DNA of 42,323 nt from positions 1 to 42,323 of IMG/VR virus record IMGVR_UViG_3300031933_000299; one strand, given 5' to 3'. The DNA is from a virus. The notes under the pieces were generated by a model. That model was not told the DNA's origin. It did not search any database and saw nothing but the letters and a program-made list of their open reading frames with translations. Shown one piece after another: positions 4,060 to 35,913 of this stretch (position 1 is its first letter; every line of letters begins with the position of its first letter). A program made the translations under genes and the position numbers.

Positions 4060-4965
4060 TTAATAATCAATCAGTCGAGGAACACTCCTTAAGTAATCCT
4101 TCCTGACAAGTTCCATGTCTACAGCGAGATAATGTCCTGTCCAGACCTTATCATTAAGGGAGTGGCCTAAAAGTGTCTTAATGTGCTCCTCCTTCATTCC
4201 TGCGCGCCGTAAATGGGTTACCAGAAAGCCACGGAAGCAATGACTTGTAAGCTGTGCTTCAAGTGGTCCTATAGGGTCATGTAGCCCGATGGGTTCCGCA
4301 TATGCCTGAATGAATTGGTTAATATAATCTTTGTGAACTCTGCCGCCAGTGTCAGAAATCCATAAGTAGCCTGTTTTACACTTCCCCAGTCGCGCGCGGG
4401 CATTCCTCCATGCAAGGTACTTTTCAAGAACTACGTGCAATTCATCATCTATGAATCTGATACGGTTCTTTGCTCGTTTCTTCCTGACAATTACAATCGT
4501 GTCTCTGGTAAGGTCAATGTCTTCCGGCTTTAGCTCTAACAGTTCTGACCTTCTGATACCTGTCTTTGCAAGGATCATAACTATGGCAATTTCCCGGATA
4601 AAATCAAGTGAGTTAATTAATTGTCTGGCCTGATCAATTGTCAGTACTTGCCTGCGGTCTGAATCGCATGATGTGTCAAGATATCTTTTTCTAAATCCTG
4701 ATACTGGATTCTTATCAGTGACCTGTTTGTAAATTAGAAATTCATAAAAAGACGAGATAGCAGAAAAGTTAGATTTCAGGGTGCTTACTTTTAATTCCCT
4801 CTCCAGTAAATGCCCTAAGTAGTATTCTAAATCTTCATAGGTTACGTTTTCAGGTTCTGGATTATGCTCTAAAAACTCTTTTACATTGCATGAATAGCTG
4901 CGTATTGTCCTGTGGGTGCGTCTACGCAATGCTAAATCATTCTCAAATTTCTTAAGTATCTCCAC
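4060..4965 (-). CDS. int: Tyrosine recombinase/integrase (XerC/D-like)
   Basis: N-terminal SAM-like core-binding region; catalytic motifs TGIRRSEL (R), KK, HCFR (HxxR), LLGH and C-terminal Y (GHYL). Confidence 0.93.
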   Translation of the reverse strand: MEILKKFENDLALRRRTHRTIRSYSCNVKEFLEHNPEPENVTYEDLEYYLGHLLERELKVSTLKSNFSAISSFYEFLIYKQVTDKNPVSGFRKRYLDTSCDSDRRQVLTIDQARQLINSLDFIREIAIVMILAKTGIRRSELLELKPEDIDLTRDTIVIVRKKRAKNRIRFIDDELHVVLEKYLAWRNARARLGKCKTGYLWISDTGGRVHKDYINQFIQAYAEPIGLHDPIGPLEAQLTSHCFRGFLVTHLRRAGMKEEHIKTLLGHSLNDKVWTGHYLAVDMELVRKDYLRSVPRLIDY

Positions 4966-6327: not shown

Positions 6328-7794
6328 ATGGCTGATAAGTTCAAATTCGCCGAGCCTGTTACGCATGAGTTTGGTGCATTTTTCCTCTATAAAGAGCTGG
6401 ATCTATATAATTCAGTAATCAACTACTTCATGCACTCTGTAGATGATCCATATAACCACTATCTTACACTCAGCACTCGAAGGTTTAAATTCTTCTCAAA
6501 ACCCGGAGGACTAAAGAACCCAAAGACCGGGAAAATAGCATTTGAGTATATACTTACATGGAAAGATGCATTCGGAGCAAGTAAATGCACATTCACAATT
6601 AAGCCGCTCTTCGGAGCCGGCACCAAAACAAAAACAGGCAAAACCCTGAACCTACCAACAGTAGGCACTCAGATACAGGTTCAATCCAGTTACATAGAAC
6701 TCGATGAGCTACTAACTCTGTTTGAATCTTTCATGGATCAGATAGATGCTGCAAGGTTTGTCTATTCTCTTGACCGTAACAATTCTAAAATATACCAGAT
6801 GGCCCGGCACGTCAGGTATCATGAATCCTATGAGAACACAGTAGCCGGAATGCTCCAAAAAATAGAGCAGGAATCTTCCACCTTAGGAGATGTAAATCTA
6901 ACCAAACAAATGGACTCCGGCAAATACTACATGTACTATCTCTCAAACCCGGACTTCAAAGTATGTAATATTAATACAAAATTCAGTCACTCAGTAAAAA
7001 CATACAGAATCAAGAACTATAAAGAGCGCACTTCTGCAGACCCTCTCAGACATCCAAAGCTCGAAGTATTCTTGCATTCAGATGATAACAACCCTTCAAT
7101 TAATCAGTATCTCGAACTCAAAAGGGATTTAGACGACTTACTTATCAAACTATTAAGCTTTGTACAACCGATTGAATATGTTACAGACGAATACTTTGAC
7201 GGAGAAAGAGTCTTTGAATACAGAAACAAGCTCCCAATATGGGACTATGAAAACCTTCCAAACCCAGACATAGACGGTTTTGATCTCTGGCACCATCCTG
7301 AGAAAACATTATCCGTACTTGCCTACATTGCCACACAGTCAGAAGGCTGTACGGAGTTCAGGCAAATATCAGAAGCTCTTACTATTCCTATTCGTTCATT
7401 ATGGCGTTATATCAATCACTGGAAATGTGAGGGTGTATTAGATACAAAGCGCAAAGAATGCACCTATGTATTTTTCAAATCTAAGAGCCTCTGGCAATCT
7501 ATCAAAGAACCTATTCTACAGGTTTGCTCATTCCTAAAAATCAACTTTAAGAGGGTCTGGGGTCAGACGTTCATAGATTCTGGTGTAATCCGTAATTTCA
7601 GAGAACGCCGTAAAAAGAACTTGAAACCTCACAAAGTAACTGGCGATGATAAAAGAGAATTAGTTGTCGTTGACGATGCCAGGAAAGCAAACGCTCTTAG
7701 GAAGGAACTGAGGGAAGAGGGAGTATCACATTTATTCAAAATTGGGATAGCCTCCACAAAATCAAACATGCGGTATAGTCGGGTAATCAATTAG
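6328..7794 (+). CDS. Putative replication initiator resembling the betapleolipovirus conserved protein (HRPV-3 ORF9-like), with C-terminal winged HTH
   Basis: VKTYRIKNY...DPLRHPKLEV resembles the motif I recall for this family; wHTH-like segment TEFRQISEALTIPIRSLWRYINHWKCEGVL. Recognised from memory only. Confidence 0.55.
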   Translation: MADKFKFAEPVTHEFGAFFLYKELDLYNSVINYFMHSVDDPYNHYLTLSTRRFKFFSKPGGLKNPKTGKIAFEYILTWKDAFGASKCTFTIKPLFGAGTKTKTGKTLNLPTVGTQIQVQSSYIELDELLTLFESFMDQIDAARFVYSLDRNNSKIYQMARHVRYHESYENTVAGMLQKIEQESSTLGDVNLTKQMDSGKYYMYYLSNPDFKVCNINTKFSHSVKTYRIKNYKERTSADPLRHPKLEVFLHSDDNNPSINQYLELKRDLDDLLIKLLSFVQPIEYVTDEYFDGERVFEYRNKLPIWDYENLPNPDIDGFDLWHHPEKTLSVLAYIATQSEGCTEFRQISEALTIPIRSLWRYINHWKCEGVLDTKRKECTYVFFKSKSLWQSIKEPILQVCSFLKINFKRVWGQTFIDSGVIRNFRERRKKNLKPHKVTGDDKRELVVVDDARKANALRKELREEGVSHLFKIGIASTKSNMRYSRVIN

Positions 7795-11734: not shown

Positions 11735-11758
11735 TTTCAACTTTCCTTTAAATAGTCA
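11735..11758 (+). promoter_or_regulatory. Putative late promoter upstream of protease
   Basis: tttcaactttcctttaaatagtca; 42 bp to ATG 11777. Confidence 0.75.
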
Positions 11759-11776: not shown

Positions 11777-12988
11777 ATGATTATTTCAACTGTTCTTTCA
11801 GAAAAACCACTCGTCGAAGGTAACAGTGTAACTCTGGCCATCTGCCGAGCAGGCACTAAAGCATATGACGAAAAGGGTAAAGAGTACACCATCACACAAT
11901 CTGCAATCGATTCAAGTGCCGATACATATTCAGGTGGAATCATCACCATCAATCACAAAGTCAAAGAAAATGGCAAGATCACAAAGTCTTGGCAAGACGG
12001 AGAGTTCATCAAAGCCACCGTGGAAGGACTTTCGCAGGCATGTGTGGATGCTATTAATTCAGCTGCTTATCGTGGTGTTTCGCAGGAATCTACTGACGCA
12101 GAGTTCGCTGACAAGAACAGCACCGATATTATCAAACTCAAAGGAACTGGTGTAACTTTTGTGTTCTATCCTGAGAATCCTGCATGTCCTTTGAATAAAG
12201 GATGTGGTGTTCCGATTGCTTCTACCATGGTAACGGCAGATGGGAACTATGAGAGACATTCTTTTGATGTAGCTGTCGAAAACAATGCAGGTACCCTTGT
12301 AAAAGTTAGTGAGATATCGGTGTACTTAGATGGTGATGAAATTGGTGATAAAGATATCCTCAAGAAAAGGATCCTGCAAGAAGCCATGTTCATAGGTGCC
12401 GGTCAGTACAAAATCTTCAATGTTGATACCTCACTCGAAACCGGTGATGTAATTCCTGCAGACAAAGAAGTTGTTCATGATGTGAATATTTCTGTATCAA
12501 TGTTAAAGAGTTTCAACTTTCCTTTAAATACCCATAATGAAAAACTTGAATCAAATACTCCTGGAGGGGTAAACATAACTGAAGCCGACCAAAGCGCAAA
12601 ACTTGAATCAACTGTCTCTGATCTCAAAACAGAGAACAAGGATCTCAAGTCCACTATCACTGAACTCCGTCAGGAGCTCAAAGAGAAGGACGGAAAGATT
12701 GAGAGCACGGTGAATGCAGCCGTGAAAGCTGCTCTGGAATCACACGACAAAGCACTCAAGGAACAGACCGAACGCGACTCTATTCTGACCGAACTCAAGT
12801 CAACCGTTTCTGATGAGACACTCGCTGGGTTCAAAGATGTACCAACATTTGCACTGAAAAGTACACTTGCAGCAATCAAGGAGAGCGCAGGGAAGCGCGT
12901 GGGAGCAAACAGCGGGACCGGTGTACAGAGCACCACAGATGAGGAGGACTATGCCTCACTGGGTGTAACATCAATCGAGGTGGAATAA
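11777..12988 (+). CDS. Prohead protease with C-terminal coiled-coil scaffold domain
   Basis: N-terminal INH and GVSQES candidate catalytic His/Ser; C-terminal heptad-rich region; lies between MuF and cement/MCP. Confidence 0.75.
   Translation: MIISTVLSEKPLVEGNSVTLAICRAGTKAYDEKGKEYTITQSAIDSSADTYSGGIITINHKVKENGKITKSWQDGEFIKATVEGLSQACVDAINSAAYRGVSQESTDAEFADKNSTDIIKLKGTGVTFVFYPENPACPLNKGCGVPIASTMVTADGNYERHSFDVAVENNAGTLVKVSEISVYLDGDEIGDKDILKKRILQEAMFIGAGQYKIFNVDTSLETGDVIPADKEVVHDVNISVSMLKSFNFPLNTHNEKLESNTPGGVNITEADQSAKLESTVSDLKTENKDLKSTITELRQELKEKDGKIESTVNAAVKAALESHDKALKEQTERDSILTELKSTVSDETLAGFKDVPTFALKSTLAAIKESAGKRVGANSGTGVQSTTDEEDYASLGVTSIEVE
12511..12530 (+). promoter_or_regulatory. Putative late promoter inside the protease ORF
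   Basis: 20/20 match (tttcaactttcctttaaata) to the copies at 11735 and 19342, followed by GGAGGGG at 12563-12569. Confidence 0.65.
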
Positions 12989-19341: not shown

Positions 19342-19361
19342 TTTCAACTTTCCTTTAAATA
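19342..19361 (+). promoter_or_regulatory. Putative late promoter for the tail operon
   Basis: tttcaactttcctttaaata in the intergenic gap before 19424. Confidence 0.7.
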
Positions 19362-27322: not shown

Positions 27323-27660
27323 TGGCATCCAGACGCAGCAGAGGAAGAGGTGTCACCCCGGGGACAATCCGTGGAAAAGACAAGAACTGGCTATCTGAAG
27401 GAATGGAACAGCGCAGGTACAGGTACGCTATGGATACTGCAAACGGTGCACTGAACAAAACAGAGACGTGCAAGAAGTGCGGTGGTCTTGCAGGATGTAT
27501 CAATGCAGCTGTCCTCAAGAACTTCGGTGTCAGAGCATATTGGAAGTGTACTGACTGTGGAAGAGAGTACACCAAAGAGATCTCATCGGAGAAGATGGAA
27601 CAATACTACCAGGAAGATCTTGCCAAGATGCACAGCAAGCCACAGGAGGCCGAAGCATGA
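27322..27660 (+). CDS. Zn-finger protein
   Basis: CKKC and CTDC pairs. Confidence 0.7.
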   Translation: MASRRSRGRGVTPGTIRGKDKNWLSEGMEQRRYRYAMDTANGALNKTETCKKCGGLAGCINAAVLKNFGVRAYWKCTDCGREYTKEISSEKMEQYYQEDLAKMHSKPQEAEA

Positions 27661-27872
27661 GCACTGCATTACCAGTTCCGGAACTCAATCCGGTAGCTCG
27701 CATGATGTTTCCTCGTGCACAGGACATGATCGACCAGCGCATCTGTCCGCAGTGTGGTGAAAAGATTGACCCTGTAGATGGATTCCGTGACGGATTATCA
27801 ATGAAAGAGTACATGATATCAGGCCTTTGCCAGTCGTGCCTGGACAGCGTCTCCGGAGATGATCAGCCATGA
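27657..27872 (+). CDS. Small Zn-finger protein
   Basis: CPQC...CQSC; ATGA overlap. Confidence 0.7.
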   Translation: MSTALPVPELNPVARMMFPRAQDMIDQRICPQCGEKIDPVDGFRDGLSMKEYMISGLCQSCLDSVSGDDQP

Positions 27873-28012
27873 TCTCCGAGATACCTGAGATCATTGACGG
27901 GATATCCGTTGCCAGGTGTGTCTGTCCTCATGGACACACATTCAATGTAGCATGGGCCTGCCGGCACAACAGTCTGTACTGTCCTAAATGTAACGAAGGG
28001 GTGGAAGCATGA
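27869..28012 (+). CDS. 47-aa Zn-ribbon protein
   Basis: CPHGHTF...CPKC; ATGA overlaps at both ends. Below the ORF-track cutoff. Confidence 0.55.
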   Translation: MISEIPEIIDGISVARCVCPHGHTFNVAWACRHNSLYCPKCNEGVEA

Positions 28013-28170
28013 GTGCAGCACCCTTTGAAATGATTGGTCCCGAGAGAATTGAAGCCATTCGCCAAGCCAAGCACGATAATCCATCTGTCACCTATAAGGA
28101 TCTGAGAATGATCCTTGGTGAGTCAGAGTATGCTATCGCAAAGGCACTGAAAGGCTACACTCCTGAGTGA
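28009..28170 (+). CDS. 53-aa HTH-like protein
   Basis: NPSVTYKDLRMILGESEYAIAKAL; ATGA overlap. Confidence 0.55.
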   Translation: MSAAPFEMIGPERIEAIRQAKHDNPSVTYKDLRMILGESEYAIAKALKGYTPE

Positions 28171-28299
28171 TAACTATGATCGCCCCCGGACAACTCCACT
28201 CCCACATAACCCCAATCCAACCAACATGTCCGGGGGATCTACCTCCAGACACGGAAAAATGAATCCTCCCGCTTGCCAGTGCGATAACTGGCACATTCT

Positions 28300-28375
28300 G
28301 CCACATCACAAAGCGCAATTGGTGCGTACCAACCGCGAAAGCGGCGGGTAACCTGTTCGAATCAGGTATGTGGCT
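28300..28375 (+). ncRNA. tRNA-like RNA with a GAAA tetraloop in place of the anticodon loop
   Basis: Acceptor GCCACAT/ATGTGGC (7 bp); T arm ACCTG-TTCGAAT-CAGGT; D-like arm GCGCA-ATTGG-TGCGT; third arm ACC-aa-CCGC-GAAA-GCGG-cg-GGT; intergenic. Confidence 0.7.
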
Positions 28376-28448
28376 TAGGCATGTGGTGGCTCTTTTCTAT
28401 ACCACCCAACGAAACCCCACTCCCACTGCCACCACATGCCAAAACAAA

Positions 28449-28769
28449 ATGAAAAGAAGTGATAGATTGAAAGATTGTGAAACAACTGTGACAATTGATC
28501 TAGCCAGATTCCCCCGGGAATATTGGACAGGATCACAGAATCCATTTTTGAAAGTAGATGAACACCAGCTCAACGACATAGAGTCGTGGATCAAGAGCAT
28601 GGTCCCAGCCAGTGATGAGTACTGTGTAGAACTAATTGGCAGATGTCCCGGACCTGTCTCACTGTATATCGGTGCACTCCTTCGTGACATGAACTGTCAG
28701 AAGTTGACCTGCATCAATCCAGGAAGAGGAACATTCACGGTATGGGATTACACGGGGGCAGGAGAATGA
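28449..28769 (+). CDS. Small alpha/beta protein, Csx3/Crn3 (ring nuclease)-like
   Basis: VELIGRCP...LYIG.LL...KLTCINPGRGTFTVWDY resembles the Csx3 GRxP...DPxxG pattern. The ORF track labels it '-', but it reads on the + strand. Confidence 0.4.
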   Translation: MKRSDRLKDCETTVTIDLARFPREYWTGSQNPFLKVDEHQLNDIESWIKSMVPASDEYCVELIGRCPGPVSLYIGALLRDMNCQKLTCINPGRGTFTVWDYTGAGE

Positions 28770-29131
28770 GCGAAATGATAGAAGAAATACAAGCCATCAA
28801 GGAACTCAAACTCCAAATGAAACTTGAACTCGGTGATCTGCCTGAACAGCGTGCTCTCCTGGAGGAAAAGATGAGAGACATTATGGATCCATTCATCGTT
28901 CGAATACAGGAACACGAAGATAACATCCGTAATATCACACTGATGAACGGGACGTCCTACAAAGGTGATGATGGAAGTAAGGTCACTTTCCGGAAAGAAC
29001 ATGTCAGAACATCATGGGATACAAAAGCACTCGAAGGATATGCAGCCGGTGGCCATGATGAGATATTGCAGTTCAAGAAGGAGACGGTTGTCAAACCCAA
29101 TGTGAGTATTTCAATTGCTGAGGTAGAATAA
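28766..29131 (+). CDS. Gam/Gp157-like host nuclease inhibitor family protein
   Basis: N-terminal coiled coil, then KVTFRK...SWDTKALEGYA...EILQFKKET; precedes the Bet gene. Confidence 0.5.
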   Translation: MSEMIEEIQAIKELKLQMKLELGDLPEQRALLEEKMRDIMDPFIVRIQEHEDNIRNITLMNGTSYKGDDGSKVTFRKEHVRTSWDTKALEGYAAGGHDEILQFKKETVVKPNVSISIAEVE

Positions 29132-29147
29132 TAAGAGGTGAAAAATA

Positions 29148-30062
29148 ATGAAATTGGATAAGAATGCGATAATTCCAGCACTGGAAAAAAACAAGGCAAT
29201 GAAAGCCAACGATGATGTATATTCACTCATTGTCGATGGTGTCAAATGTGGAATTGATTTCAAGAAAAACGAGTTCTTCTGGATGGACGATCTCACCAGA
29301 ATGTCTGATGATAGTAATTGTGAAGAGCTCAAGAAGTTCAAGGAAATCTGCCTTGGTGCAATGTTTTCTAAGAATAAGAGTAGTGGTGAACCTTCCAAGT
29401 CTGCCCCATCTGATGCAACCGACCAAAGCGCAAGTGTGGAGGAGACTGATGAAGAAGGATACACCAATACAGAATATGACAATCCACCACATGAATCTTT
29501 TGTACCTGCACCAGTCACACAGAGACAAGTTGCAGCCGCACATAGCGTGGACTTCACACCCGACCAGATCGATACGATAAGGAACACTGTTGCCAAAGGT
29601 GCAACTGATGATGAGCTGGCAATGTTCATGCACCTGGCAAATACATATGGCCTTGATCCGTTCCTGAAGGAGATCTTCTATTCCAGCCAGATGAAAACCA
29701 TCATCACATCGAGAGATGGGTACCTGAAGGTTGCACAGAGAGATCCTGAATTCGATGGAATTCAGTCCATGGCAGTATGTGAGAATGATGACTTCTCAAT
29801 TGACATGGTGAACAATGTTGTCAATCACTCGTTTGGAAAGGGTGACCGGGGGTCTGTAATCGGTGCGTGGGCTGTCTGTTACAGGAAAGGACGCAGGCCA
29901 GTTATTGCATATGCTGACTATAATGAGTACAACAAGAACAACCCGATCTGGAAGACTTACAAGAGTGCAATGTGCTGTAAGGTTGCAGAGGTTTTTGCCT
30001 TGAAGAGACAGTTTGGCATTAGTGGTCTGGTGACTCAGGAAGAGATGGGGGTGGAAGCATGA
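29148..30062 (+). CDS. recT: Bet/RecT single-strand annealing protein with N-terminal extension
   Basis: ATDDELAMFMHLANTYGLDPFLKEI...TSRDGYLKVA...GAWAVCYRK...AMCCKVAEVFALKRQF...EEM. Confidence 0.88.
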   Translation: MKLDKNAIIPALEKNKAMKANDDVYSLIVDGVKCGIDFKKNEFFWMDDLTRMSDDSNCEELKKFKEICLGAMFSKNKSSGEPSKSAPSDATDQSASVEETDEEGYTNTEYDNPPHESFVPAPVTQRQVAAAHSVDFTPDQIDTIRNTVAKGATDDELAMFMHLANTYGLDPFLKEIFYSSQMKTIITSRDGYLKVAQRDPEFDGIQSMAVCENDDFSIDMVNNVVNHSFGKGDRGSVIGAWAVCYRKGRRPVIAYADYNEYNKNNPIWKTYKSAMCCKVAEVFALKRQFGISGLVTQEEMGVEA

Positions 30063-30290: not shown

Positions 30291-31028
30291 ATGAAATTAA
30301 TATATGTAGCTGGAGCATACACAAGCAACCCATTAAAAAACATGGAAATTGCAGAAAAAGCAAGCATTGACTTAATACGCAATGGATTTGCTGTTTTTAC
30401 CCCCCATAAGAACTTTTACGATTATCAAAAGTACGAAGATGTAGATTATGAAACATATCTTCAAATCGACTTTGATATTATTTCAAGATGTGATGCCGTT
30501 TACGTTCTTGATAACTGGAATGAATCTCCAGGAACAAAAAGAGAAATAGAGTACTGTATTTCAGTGGGTATTCCGGTTTTGTACCAATCTGTTTTTAATG
30601 CGCGTGATTTGTTGCCAGAAAGTGTTTCTGAAAATAAAGAAGAGGAAATACGCACAGAAGCCATTAAACATTATGGCAAACCTGCTCAGGTTTTGAAGTG
30701 TATTGAAGAACTTGCAGAACTTCAAATTGAACTCATACAGAGCCTCGATACAATGGTAAACGAGGAAAACAAACCATGGTGTCATTTACACCAGATTGAG
30801 CAAGAAGCCCGATGCATATGGCATTGGACACAAGAAATCAATCCAAAGGATATCACCATGTATGATGATATCCAAGCGGACAAAGTTGTTTCTGAACTCG
30901 CCGACGTCTCCATCACAACCTCTCAAATGAAGAAAATATTCACCACCTCGGACGAGTTCGAGAAGGTAAAACAAGCAAAGTTGAGTAGACTTGTTGAGAG
31001 GATGAACGGGGATGGTGATTCTCAATGA
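30291..31028 (+). CDS. Fusion of DUF4406/nucleoside-deoxyribosyltransferase-like and MazG-like NTP pyrophosphatase domains
   Basis: IYVAGAY...TPH...RCDAVYVLDNWNESPGTKREIE, then KCIEELAEL...SELADV. Confidence 0.8.
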   Translation: MKLIYVAGAYTSNPLKNMEIAEKASIDLIRNGFAVFTPHKNFYDYQKYEDVDYETYLQIDFDIISRCDAVYVLDNWNESPGTKREIEYCISVGIPVLYQSVFNARDLLPESVSENKEEEIRTEAIKHYGKPAQVLKCIEELAELQIELIQSLDTMVNEENKPWCHLHQIEQEARCIWHWTQEINPKDITMYDDIQADKVVSELADVSITTSQMKKIFTTSDEFEKVKQAKLSRLVERMNGDGDSQ

Positions 31029-32726: not shown

Positions 32727-33094
32727 TTCCGGAATCTAACACTATAGCGTCCCGCAATGGCAGAACAATAGAATCCACAATCTGTGACTATCTGGGAATC
32801 ACCCACAACTATAATGACATTGTTGATGCTGAACTCGATGGCCATCCATTTGAGATCAAGTCATGTCAAGAGTATATCGGTGATTCCAGTCACAACAACG
32901 GCAGAAGATCAGGCAGATTTCAACTGAACGAAGAACAGCATCAATATCTCGTTGAGAACAATGGCATTTATGCTTTTGTTGTTCACTCAGACGGTGAAAT
33001 CAAGAGAACTTGTCTTAAAAGGGCTTCTGCAGTGGGTGAGATTGTTGGGCGGTCTTGTGGTAGGACATGGAGAGGGGTGATGGCAAGTGTCTAA
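32723..33094 (+). CDS. PD-(D/E)xK family nuclease
   Basis: GRTIE...IVDAELDGHPFEIKSC catalytic pattern. Confidence 0.75.
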   Translation: MIPESNTIASRNGRTIESTICDYLGITHNYNDIVDAELDGHPFEIKSCQEYIGDSSHNNGRRSGRFQLNEEQHQYLVENNGIYAFVVHSDGEIKRTCLKRASAVGEIVGRSCGRTWRGVMASV

Positions 33095-33833
33095 CTACAA
33101 GGTCATCTACAAACCCAAAGGCAAAGCCGGGGAATACTGCGACGGATATGCAGCCAATCTCTACAGAGGATGTGGTCACAAATGCACCTACTGTTATGCT
33201 CCACGGGTACTCCATATGAAGAGTGATGAGTTCTTCAATGACCCAAAACCACGCAAGGATATCCTTGAAAACCATTTTGCTGACATCGACAAAATGGTTG
33301 CTGAAGGTGATATTCAGGAAGTATTCCTCTGCTTTACATGTGACCCATTGCAGCCGATAGAAGGTACCGAAGAGATTACCGAGAGAGCTATCAGGCACAT
33401 GGAAAAGATGGGTGTCCCGTACAGGATACTCACAAAGGCGGGATATCAACAGGCCAAGGATTATCTTTTGTACTTCATGTCTCCTGATCTGGCAACCATA
33501 GGTTCAACGTTGGTATTCTGCAAGGATAAGCACTCTGAAAGGTTCGAACCGGGTGCTCCAGTGACATCAGACCGGCTTAATCTTCTCTGGCAGGCACACC
33601 GCCTCAAGTTCAAAACATGGGTATCCCTGGAACCTGTCTGGACTCCCACAGATGCAATTGCACTCATAAAACGAACTCATGAATTTGTTGATGAGTTCAG
33701 GATTGGAAAGTTGAATTACCATCCACAGAGCAAGAATGTCGATTGGGTGAAGTTTGCCCGAGAGATATCTGATTTTTGTGATGATCTTGGTGTGAAGTAT
33801 ACGTTGAAGGAAGATTTGAGGAGGTTGCTCTGA
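33087..33833 (+). CDS. Radical SAM protein (SPL-like family)
   Basis: NLYRGCGHKCTYCYA (CxxxCxxC), CDPLQP, ILTK, WVSLEP. Confidence 0.9.
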   Translation: MSNYKVIYKPKGKAGEYCDGYAANLYRGCGHKCTYCYAPRVLHMKSDEFFNDPKPRKDILENHFADIDKMVAEGDIQEVFLCFTCDPLQPIEGTEEITERAIRHMEKMGVPYRILTKAGYQQAKDYLLYFMSPDLATIGSTLVFCKDKHSERFEPGAPVTSDRLNLLWQAHRLKFKTWVSLEPVWTPTDAIALIKRTHEFVDEFRIGKLNYHPQSKNVDWVKFAREISDFCDDLGVKYTLKEDLRRLL

Positions 33834-34138
33834 TGGGCGAGATTGTATACCTCACTCGAAAAACTCTCGACATACTAGAAGAGTACCAACTCCAATATGG
33901 CGTGGACACTTACAACGATGCTATTCAGGCAATGGAAGACCACATTAATGAAGTTAGCAAAGAGTACAATCGTCCTGCAGATGAGCTTATCGTCTCGTTA
34001 CTTGGACAACTAAGTGACTACGGAAATGCCCCATATGCAATTGACTGTTGTAGTCATGGGTTTCATCTGAGAACAATCAGTGCATGGTCCACTGAGCAAT
34101 TGGTTACAGAACTGAAAAAAAGGAGGTGTTCAAAGTGA
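33833..34138 (+). CDS. Hypothetical protein
   Basis: TGATG coupling. Confidence 0.6.
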   Translation: MGEIVYLTRKTLDILEEYQLQYGVDTYNDAIQAMEDHINEVSKEYNRPADELIVSLLGQLSDYGNAPYAIDCCSHGFHLRTISAWSTEQLVTELKKRRCSK

Positions 34139-34863
34139 GCACCCAACTTACTTTTGATGCTGTCCCACCGTCACCCGTCCACCTGATCGAACAACCACAA
34201 CCAGAAGTCAACTTAAGATCACTCCCAGAAATTAAAAAAGACTTCCACGACACCATTAAGAAACTCTCATATTCCCGTCACACATGGCAAGTGTGGGAAG
34301 ATTTCTGCGAACTTGGTGCCATGGCACTTGCCAACTCCATGTTGTTCTCAGATGAGCGAGAAGCCCGGTATATGGCCACTATTAAGAGATATGAACCAGA
34401 GGAAGTACAACTCTTCCCTCGCCTCCTTGGAATGGTCACAGAAGCTCTTGAGATAGAGTTTCAGGACTTTCTTGGTGAGATGTTCATGGAATTGGAGATG
34501 GGGAACAAGTGGCATGGCCAGTTCTTCACTCCATACCCTCTCTGCAAGGCAATGTCTGCACTTTCAATGAGTGATGAACCGTTTGACAGCAAGGATATTG
34601 TTACAGTCAATGAGCCTGCTTGCGGAGCCGGTGCTATGTGTGTTGCTCTATGTGATCATCTCATCAATGATAGGAAAATCAACTATCAGGACCGTATCAG
34701 GATAGTTGCTCAAGATGTTGACAGGACAGCTGCACACATGTGTTACATTCAGCTTTCCTTGATTGGTGCTCATGCTCGGGTAGTCTGGGGAGATTCACTG
34801 AAGGTTGAAGCGAAGGATGTGTATGTGACTCCATTTGCTGTTATGAAGGGGTGGTTGAATTGA
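34135..34863 (+). CDS. N6-adenine DNA methyltransferase-like protein (HsdM-type SAM-binding part; no NPPY motif seen)
   Basis: GQFFTPY, NEPACGAGAM (motif I), AQDVD, WGDSL. Confidence 0.8.
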   Translation: MSTQLTFDAVPPSPVHLIEQPQPEVNLRSLPEIKKDFHDTIKKLSYSRHTWQVWEDFCELGAMALANSMLFSDEREARYMATIKRYEPEEVQLFPRLLGMVTEALEIEFQDFLGEMFMELEMGNKWHGQFFTPYPLCKAMSALSMSDEPFDSKDIVTVNEPACGAGAMCVALCDHLINDRKINYQDRIRIVAQDVDRTAAHMCYIQLSLIGAHARVVWGDSLKVEAKDVYVTPFAVMKGWLN

Positions 34864-35202
34864 TAGAAATACACAACACCTTCGTACAGACATGTGACAG
34901 CTGCCCGTCGAACTGGGATTTGAAAGCTATCCATGTCTCACCTATCGGGGACAGATCAGAGACTATTCTTGTCCTATGTGGTGGGTGTAGGTATGAACTG
35001 AAAAAGAAGCTGGATAAGGAGGTGGTCTGATGACTACAATTCAACGCCACGACCCGATCACCGTCGGCAAAAACGGAAAGGTCAGGAAAGCAAAGGAAGG
35101 AGACCCGATTATCGGATATGCTTGGATACACGAACGCAGATCAGGCGTTTTGGTGGCAATTCCTGGTACAGCATGGCTCATAAAAATGGAGGTGGAAAGG
35201 TA

Positions 35203-35913
35203 ATGCCACTCCATGACATTGACAAACTGGTTGACCTCGAAACCGAAATCATCCAGTACGACGACCACCTCAGACGCTATCCGGATGATACAAAAACAGA
35301 AGGGAAACTCAAAAGACGTCTATCTAAATGGGTAGACAACCTCGAAATCACAATCTTTGTAGCCAGGAATGAGCAGAAACCATGGTCTGAACTTGAACTG
35401 GGATATCCAACCAGGCCAATGCCAACGAAGGCTATGATAGGGAGAGACCAGGTCGGTGACTATCAATGCTACATTGATCGGGGCGGCAGGATGCAGGACA
35501 ACTTTGCATCTTTTGTAGTTGACCGCAAGGAGTGTTCTGATTTCTATTCGACATTGTTCTCAAAAGGCCAGAGCGGGAAGAACCGGGATAGGTTCTATCG
35601 GGAACTGGACCGGTTTGAGAGAGATCCTCGCTTTGACGAGTTCTACGTCTTCGTTGAATGTGACTTCATCACCTGGTTGAATTATGTTCCACCTGGGAAC
35701 TCTGGTAACCTGATGGTTCCACAGAAACTTGCATCTGTGGCATCATTGGAAGCTCGTGGTGCTCATGTTGTCTGGAATGGTAACAGGAAGATTGCCTGCC
35801 GGATGTACCGGGAACTTTGCAGGCAGTATTGTTTGAAGAATTATCGTAAAATCATCAATGGACATGCTGAAGTTGAACAGGTATGTGATGTTGGGAGGTT
35901 GGGATTTGCATGA
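35203..35913 (+). CDS. ERCC4/XPF-family nuclease
   Basis: VGDYQ...FVVDRKECSDFYSTL...RFYRELDRF...YVFVE; start moved to ATG 35203 (GGAGGTG RBS). Confidence 0.85.
   Translation: MPLHDIDKLVDLETEIIQYDDHLRRYPDDTKTEGKLKRRLSKWVDNLEITIFVARNEQKPWSELELGYPTRPMPTKAMIGRDQVGDYQCYIDRGGRMQDNFASFVVDRKECSDFYSTLFSKGQSGKNRDRFYRELDRFERDPRFDEFYVFVECDFITWLNYVPPGNSGNLMVPQKLASVASLEARGAHVVWNGNRKIACRMYRELCRQYCLKNYRKIINGHAEVEQVCDVGRLGFA

Follow-up and report, generated by a model that had tools for sequence, protein, structure and literature searches.

The locus and the virus that carries it

The window, meaning the whole 42,323-nt stretch of DNA analyzed here, is a virus record from IMG/VR that CheckV rates as 55% complete. 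The virus originates from deep-subsurface brines, and the sequence is found in public gas-well, shale-rock, oil-field, subsurface, sediment and wastewater metagenomes; no RNA run is listed among the public runs that hold the element described below. The genes of the window include those for a tail tape-measure protein, a large terminase, RecT (29148-30062) and a DUF927 primase-helicase. A single tyrosine integrase gene is present at 4114-4647 on the minus strand, approximately 23.6 kb from the element. Four genes of the early region (30291-31028, 33087-33833, 34126-34863 and 35122-35913) encode a DUF4406/nucleoside 2-deoxyribosyltransferase-like protein fused to an NTP-pyrophosphohydrolase-like part, a radical SAM-like protein (weak matches), an N6 DNA methylase-like protein and an ERCC4-like nuclease, and their sequences suggest functions in DNA modification and repair.

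The motif TTTCAACTTTCC-TTTAAATA occurs in three exact copies (11735-11754, 12511-12530 and 19342-19361), the first of which ends 22 nt before ATG 11777. This geometry looks like that of an archaeal BRE/TATA promoter with a leaderless message, apparently of a late type. The three copies of this promoter-like motif, and the 22-nt distance of one of them from a start codon, make an archaeal host probable. In similarity searches, TerL and the primase-helicase matched phages that infect many different bacteria, and one Methanomicrobiales virus, at identities of 25-43% that do not decide the host, and an atlas search with a capsid-region protein returned only "Viruses".

The element lies within a non-coding block of 278 nt (28171-28448), whose flanking genes encode 53 and 106 aa. 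The neighboring genes are all on the plus strand, in the same sense as the element. Coordinates of the features are given in the table.

Table. Features of the non-coding block and alleles found in the slot. Positions are those of the window unless a contig (L number) is named; HP, hairpin.
Feature	Position	Strand	Basis or remarks
Anticodon-less tRNA-shaped element, allele A1 (76 nt, discriminator U28375 included)	28300..28375	+	Sequence, MFE cloverleaf, covariance model R1
Acceptor stem, 5' strand	28300..28306	+	Partner is 28368-28374; same as in the tRNA-Thr(UGU) allele of L023
Linker after acceptor 5' strand, 6 nt	28307-28312	+	Sequence
D arm: GCGC / 7-nt loop with GG / GCGU, 4-bp stem	28313..28327	+	Stem invariant in A1, A2, B and D
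Extended hairpin with GNRA tetraloop GAAA (28337-28340), replacing anticodon arm and variable loop	28328..28349	+	Sequence, MFE fold
T arm: ACCUG / UUCGAAU / CAGGU, 5-bp stem	28351..28367	+	Sequence
Acceptor stem, 3' strand	28368..28374	+	Sequence, MFE fold
HP1: 10-bp stem, 34-nt loop without G	28183..28236	+	Upstream end of the structured block
Small 7-bp hairpin	28276..28295	+	Stem sequence and 3' flank CAUU as in element C1 of L021 (1261-1335)
HP2: 13-bp stem, 37-nt C/A-rich loop with one G	28378..28440	+	
106-aa gene, 3' of the slot in all contigs	28449..28769	+	Start uncertain, TTG 28467 possible
Allele A1	Window; L020, L031-L034, L043-L050		All copies identical
Allele A2	L036-L038		Five differences from A1
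Allele B	L023 (1355-1428), L025, L051 (2355-2428)		Bona fide tRNA-Thr(UGU)
Allele C1	L021 1261-1335 (relatives of the L021 group: L022, L024, L026-L030)		Aberrant tRNA-like element
Allele C2	L021 1348-1427 (same group)		Aberrant tRNA-like element
Allele D	L035		Tetraloop AACA replacing the 7-nt loop
Allele E	L051 2804-2926, 123 nt		Acceptor and T arm both perfect; further arm reads ACCGG-UGUA-CCGGU; acceptor 5' strand followed by about 55 extra nt

HP2 begins 2 nt past the discriminator of the element and ends 8 nt ahead of ATG 28449. It is present after every allele, and its variants consist only of C to U changes in the 3' arm, which turn G-C pairs into G.U pairs; the HP2 that follows allele D is unrelated in sequence and has the same architecture. 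Since the G.U variants pair only in plus-strand RNA, they indicate a constraint at the RNA level and imply transcription through the region. A coding reading of HP2 was rejected: in the window an open frame leads from ATG 28368 into the 106-aa gene, but changes in loop length close or shift this frame in L043 and L023.

HP1 and HP2 bracket the tRNA-like region; both loops are C/A-rich (G at 0/34 and 1/37 positions), and both contain CCACUCCCAC. A TATA-like stretch is located within the HP2 loop. The motif CUACCUCC, which resembles the 16S rRNA 3' end, is found upstream of the element: at 28241-28248 in the window, and immediately before the element in L023, L037 and L035. The small hairpin between HP1 and the element resembles what would remain of a second tRNA-shaped element collapsed to its acceptor stem; in L021 this second element is present at full length.

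The start of the 106-aa gene may be at 28467, as the corresponding gene downstream of allele D begins at the position aligned with TTG 28467. Its product has no match to a Pfam or PHROG family. A weak NCBIfam match to a SAVED domain (E 0.0038) falls below the cut-off, and the AF2 model is an alpha/beta fold (pLDDT 70.6) with no PDB fold match at E<=0.001.

A cloverleaf with a tetraloop-capped arm

An earlier note on this DNA, made from the letters alone, had described a cloverleaf at 28300-28375 with a 7-bp acceptor stem, a canonical T arm, a D arm carrying GG, a 6-nt linker and no encoded CCA, and both the sequence and the minimum free energy (MFE) fold bear this description out. On direct reading, the acceptor stem consists of 7/7 Watson-Crick pairs followed by the discriminator U28375, after which no CCA is encoded. 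The MFE structure of the 76 nt is itself the cloverleaf, at -33.5 kcal/mol compared with a mean of -20.8 for shuffled sequences (z -4.18), and 0/200 shuffles were as good. Covariance model R1, whose E-values are rough, gave A1 a score of 109.8 bits, and a search of the window with it found no second copy of the element.

The CCGC-GAAA-GCGG hairpin that the note had placed in the anticodon position is present, in an arm longer than it had stated. The capped arm of A1 comprises 22 nt, in which a 3-bp outer helix (ACC with GGU) is separated by a 2x2 internal loop from the 4-bp inner helix that carries the GAAA cap. No nucleotide separates this arm from the D stem and a single A precedes the T stem, so A1 has no variable loop. 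The top half of the molecule is that of a canonical tRNA, with the 7-bp acceptor stem on a 5-bp T stem, a T loop of the UUCRAAU type and GG in the D loop; the 5-bp anticodon stem and the 7-nt loop with U33 and an anticodon are absent. The element is therefore tRNA-shaped and incapable of decoding, its arm being closed by GAAA, as had been claimed.

Standard tools pass over the element; for ARAGORN, the note had expected a failure or a pseudogene call. ARAGORN called 0 tRNAs and no tmRNA over the whole window. Rfam cmscan with 4227 families gave nothing at gathering score, and at E<=10 there were only three chance-level snoRNA/snRNA rows, with no relevant match over 27900-28800. The canonical tRNA family RF00005 (cut-off 29 bits) left A1 unmatched even at E<=10, as did the Rfam covariance models of mascRNA/menRNA, plant-virus TLS, tmRNA and YrlA. 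These results agree with the earlier view that the element stands outside the described families.

Two other readings of the capped arm were considered. A bulge-helix-bulge or intron was rejected, as the 2x2 internal loop is not the staggered 3-nt bulge-helix-bulge and excision would leave no anticodon. A type II tRNA without an anticodon arm was dropped because the tRNA-Thr allele described below shows the capped arm to be a reworked anticodon arm.

An allelic series in one slot

Direct sequence and pattern searches with the element found only near-identical copies. Against phage GenBank records, megablast with 27500-29500 as the query found nothing, and blastn with the element returned only chance matches of 29 nt. 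Pattern scans of IMG/VR recovered one near-identical relative together with ordinary tRNA-Ser and tRNA-Phe genes, and the resemblance of CCGC-GAAA-GCGG to tRNA-Ser variable arms is a by-product of the search pattern. Scans for the element pattern gave 0 matches in genome contigs, where a RecT scan also found no relative, and 0 matches in metagenome contigs. Relatives were reached through the 90%-identity cluster of the downstream 106-aa protein, by comparing the contigs that encode its members. In all of the fetched contigs, a tRNA-shaped sequence lies directly 5' of HP2 and the 106-aa gene, and this sequence varies between viruses; only about five distinct alleles were found, and they all belong to a single small group of viruses.

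ARAGORN recognizes allele B as a tRNA, and its RF00005 score is 55.1 bits. The acceptor stem, D stem, T loop and U73 of A1 are all identical to those of B. The segment between the D stem and the T stem is 23 nt in both, with 12/23 positions identical, and this equal length and partial identity make A1 look like a tRNA whose anticodon arm and variable loop were re-zipped by point changes, not one that received a foreign insertion. Judged by sequence, and because sister viruses carry a bona fide tRNA-Thr(UGU) in this slot, A1 is a remodelled viral tRNA gene, by descent from or kinship with the tRNA-Thr allele, and not a mimic that arose de novo. Alleles A2 and B share the same upstream flank and come from the same samples (3300036940 and 3300035102). 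In allele D, the anticodon stem is homologous to that of B, with one compensatory pair, and the loop is reduced from 7 to 4 nt. The 7-nt anticodon loop is missing from at least three further alleles (D, E and C1), all of which have a perfect T arm and keep a 7-bp acceptor stem that in D and E is perfect as well.

Several lines of evidence suggest that the fold has been under selection. The five positions at which A1 and A2 differ change the tetraloop-closing pair from C-G to U.G, the tetraloop from GAAA to GCAA, a T-stem pair from C-G to U-A and the discriminator from U to G, and all five differences are compatible with the structure. When five random substitutions were simulated, all pairs and the GNRA loop were kept in 2.3% of trials, or 6.6% with transition bias; with a compensatory pair also required, the figure was 0.45-0.8%. 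In an alignment of A1, A2, B and D, four sequences fitted to model R1, 97.8% of cells pair, compared with 27-47% in a control in which the 3' partners were slid. Both sides have changed in 7/23 pairs, of which three are in the T stem (of 5 pairs), one is in the acceptor stem (pair 2-71, C-G in A1 and U-A in D) and three are in the capped arm.

Conservation of the block points the same way. L033 differs from the window at 1 of 279 non-coding nt, compared with 16/170 and 15/321 in the flanking genes. A 121-nt unitig covering 28270-28390 in a wastewater run is identical to the window, with flanks that differ by 5-16% or diverge from it. We consider it probable, from these sequence comparisons, that the element is a selected, structured, non-decoding derivative of a tRNA.

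Other members of the slot show further departures from a standard tRNA. Allele B has C33 and an A27.A43 mismatch; U is near-universal at tRNA position 33. Either feature could be a change in the anticodon loop like those proposed to help evade tRNA-targeting defences, or the beginning of a loss of decoding. In a 34.5-kb Logan contig (L051, SRR23823805), three tRNA-shaped elements lie on one strand between 2355 and 2926. The first (2355-2428) is the tRNA-Thr(UGU), the second (2556-2656) is 101 nt long and has a good acceptor stem and T arm, and the third is the 123-nt element at 2804-2926. In C2 only 3/5 T-stem pairs form, yet this version was seen in more samples than any other; its 3' half, from the T loop onward, is common to E. 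C2 looks like a chimera formed by crossover inside the conserved T loop, which would explain the mismatched T stem.

Candidate roles and known tRNA-like RNAs

Across the alleles, the acceptor stem, T arm and D arm are kept, and the anticodon arm varies and is closed in most. The acceptor stem, T arm and D arm are the parts of a tRNA that RNase P, tRNase Z and the CCA enzyme read. Because the features used by processing enzymes are conserved, the element lies in sense orientation and a hairpin constrained at the RNA level follows immediately 3', the reading that fits best is that of a t-element (tRNA punctuation) in an early transcript, to be cut by RNase P and tRNase Z; we put its probability at roughly 45%. 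As expected of a t-element, A1 combines a non-decoding tRNA-like fold with sense orientation and a position beside the end of another RNA, given the transcription unit that we infer here.

Under the t-element reading, a viral gene of the tRNA-Thr type would have had its anticodon arm and variable loop re-zipped into a tetraloop-capped hairpin, with the acceptor, T and D arms retained. The element would be transcribed in sense within a leader between two early gene blocks of this tailed virus. Host RNase P would then cut 5' of G28300 and tRNase Z after U28375. The upstream message would end shortly past the 28276-28295 hairpin, its last structure, with HP1 further upstream; the downstream message would start 2 nt before HP2, which may shield and so stabilize its 5' end. 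The freed 76-nt RNA may gain CCA. Recognition by the processing enzymes is uncertain, since the tRNA core may be distorted by the 6-nt linker and the missing variable loop. The TATA-like stretch in the HP2 loop could give the downstream gene its own promoter, which would count against a t-element, as do the decay and shuffling seen in the slot, namely the collapsed partner at 28276-28295 and the chimeric C2, which is common despite its mismatched T stem.

The same decay is the starting point of a second explanation, in which a viral tRNA-Thr gene was recently stripped of decoding and the resulting young pseudogene is pending deletion, its conservation reflecting recency and hitch-hiking with functional hairpins. 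The element is allelic with an intact tRNA-Thr, the slot holds both a collapsed remnant and a chimera with a broken T stem, A1 and A2 are only 5 positions apart, the A1 copies are identical, and even the intact allele B has C33 and the A27.A43 mismatch. The earlier note had listed a degenerate host tRNA among the outcomes that would undo its reading; with the real viral tRNA-Thr(UGU) in sister viruses, a degenerate tRNA is a weakened rival. The note had also held that a lack of compensatory changes in homologues, together with the lack of a discrete transcript, would speak against it; the homologous alleles do show such changes, with the fold kept. Every A1/A2 difference is structure-preserving, with a compensatory pair and one GNRA loop exchanged for another. 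D, E and C1 also have no normal anticodon loop, their acceptor stems being intact and their T arms perfect, and the changes that led to this state differ between A and D. Moreover, the block is better conserved than the genes beside it, and decay would be expected to break stems, not to build a stable 4-bp GNRA hairpin at unchanged total length. We therefore regard a pseudogene as unlikely. A decoy or chargeable mimic is harder still to credit. The freed RNA would here occupy a host protein that reads the acceptor or elbow, such as ThrRS, the CCA enzyme, a modification enzyme or an acceptor-targeting defence nuclease. G1-C72, C2-G71, C3-G70 and U73 are the same as in the tRNA-Thr allele, and the U73 that is kept is a threonine identity determinant in Haloferax volcanii (PMC9976931); the weak SAVED-domain match of the next gene (E 0.0038) would suit an early anti-defence block. 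However, with G73 in A2 and U2-A71 in D, the putative identity set is not conserved, and an anticodon nuclease would require the loop that is absent. It seems improbable that the element is a dedicated threonine-acceptor mimic, which after release and CCA addition would be recognized and perhaps charged by an archaeal ThrRS or another acceptor reader, would never decode, and would titrate or redirect a host tRNA-handling or defence factor.

A site acting at the DNA level would account for the mosaic breakpoints on both sides of the element; it could be a hotspot of recombination where two modules meet, or an attachment site of the past that was copied from a host tRNA gene. L043 and L050 are 100% identical to the window over the upstream block and element and 71-78% identical downstream, L037 has the downstream block in common and an unrelated upstream flank, and C2 looks like a T-loop crossover. 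tRNA genes are also classic integration targets. An attachment site would be expected as a partial 3' tRNA copy beside an integrase and repeated at the other end, but the cloverleaf is full length, with both acceptor strands and not a 3' fragment, it is single-copy in the window, and the sole integrase (4114-4647(-)) lies about 23.6 kb off. The compensatory and G.U-only changes are in addition RNA-level signals, and we give a DNA site slim odds. The weakest rival is a Y-RNA-like scaffold binding a Ro/Rsr-type protein, a role suggested in the earlier note. YrlA, a Y RNA of bacteria and phages, has an anticodon-less tRNA-like domain, and the element, too, is flanked by stems. A1 differs in having no Rfam match at E<=10, to YrlA or otherwise, no extension of its acceptor stem into a Ro-binding helix and no Ro/Rsr gene nearby, a search for a TROVE-domain gene (PF05731) having given no match at E<=1 in the window. 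The suggestion is thus unsupported and very improbable.

The t-element reading has precedents in cellular systems. In Haloferax volcanii, a natural tRNA-like element lies upstream of 5S rRNA, and RNase P and tRNase Z cut such elements when they are placed around other RNAs (PMC4326828, PMC4946936); t-elements likewise occur in plant mitochondria (PMC1920247). A1 shares with these a non-decoding tRNA-shaped fold next to another RNA in a longer transcript, the archaeal case being a direct precedent. Unlike the Haloferax and plant elements, it is viral, lies between protein genes, forms a cloverleaf of full size that includes a D arm and a GNRA-capped arm, and is allelic with a tRNA-Thr; its cleavage is predicted. 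From the canonical tRNA-Thr(UGU) allele itself, A1 differs in having no 7-nt anticodon loop or variable loop, a linker of 6 instead of 2 nt, and no RF00005 match compared with 55.1 bits.

Other RNAs resemble A1 in part. Like mascRNA/MEN-beta (RF01684), it has a tRNA-like fold without a working anticodon, and mascRNA is freed by RNase P and RNase Z and receives CCA; those RNAs are the 3' ends of vertebrate nuclear lncRNAs, whereas A1 has neither an Rfam match nor sequence kinship with them. The vtRNAs/TMERs of murid gammaherpesvirus 68 are viral, non-aminoacylated tRNA-like RNAs with hairpins directly after them, the two being separated by tRNase Z. A1 is similarly a tRNA-like RNA of a virus with a hairpin directly after it, but the TMERs are Pol III units of a eukaryotic herpesvirus with pre-miRNA hairpins, whereas HP2 precedes a protein gene. 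The brome mosaic virus TLS-Tyr has a four-nucleotide pseudo-anticodon loop (PMC9976931) and so parallels A1 as a viral tRNA mimic with a 4-nt loop at the place of the anticodon loop; it is, however, the 3'-terminal, pseudoknotted and aminoacylated end of a plant RNA virus, unrelated in sequence and context. None of the papers searched describes tRNA-like processing elements, or tRNA mimics without an anticodon, in viruses of archaea.

To these systems the locus adds an allelic series, from a working tRNA-Thr to several codon-blind derivatives in one slot. If the processing role is true, tailed archaeal viruses would punctuate early messages with domesticated tRNA genes, as mitochondria do, and the series would trace how that domestication came about. 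The locus also offers a concrete substrate for asking what archaeal RNase P and tRNase Z require of the tRNA core. Such elements are missed by tRNA finders and Rfam, and viral annotation pipelines consequently show empty spacers in their place.

A comparable sequence was observed in a 291-kb IMG/VR contig (L008) with an array of 35 tRNAs and a tmRNA. The stretch at 6967-7029 scores 37.7 bits on RF00005 and receives no ARAGORN call; its anticodon arm reads as a 6-bp stem with a GAAA cap, combined with a weak acceptor stem. This sequence may represent a further codon-blind tRNA, in a jumbo phage.
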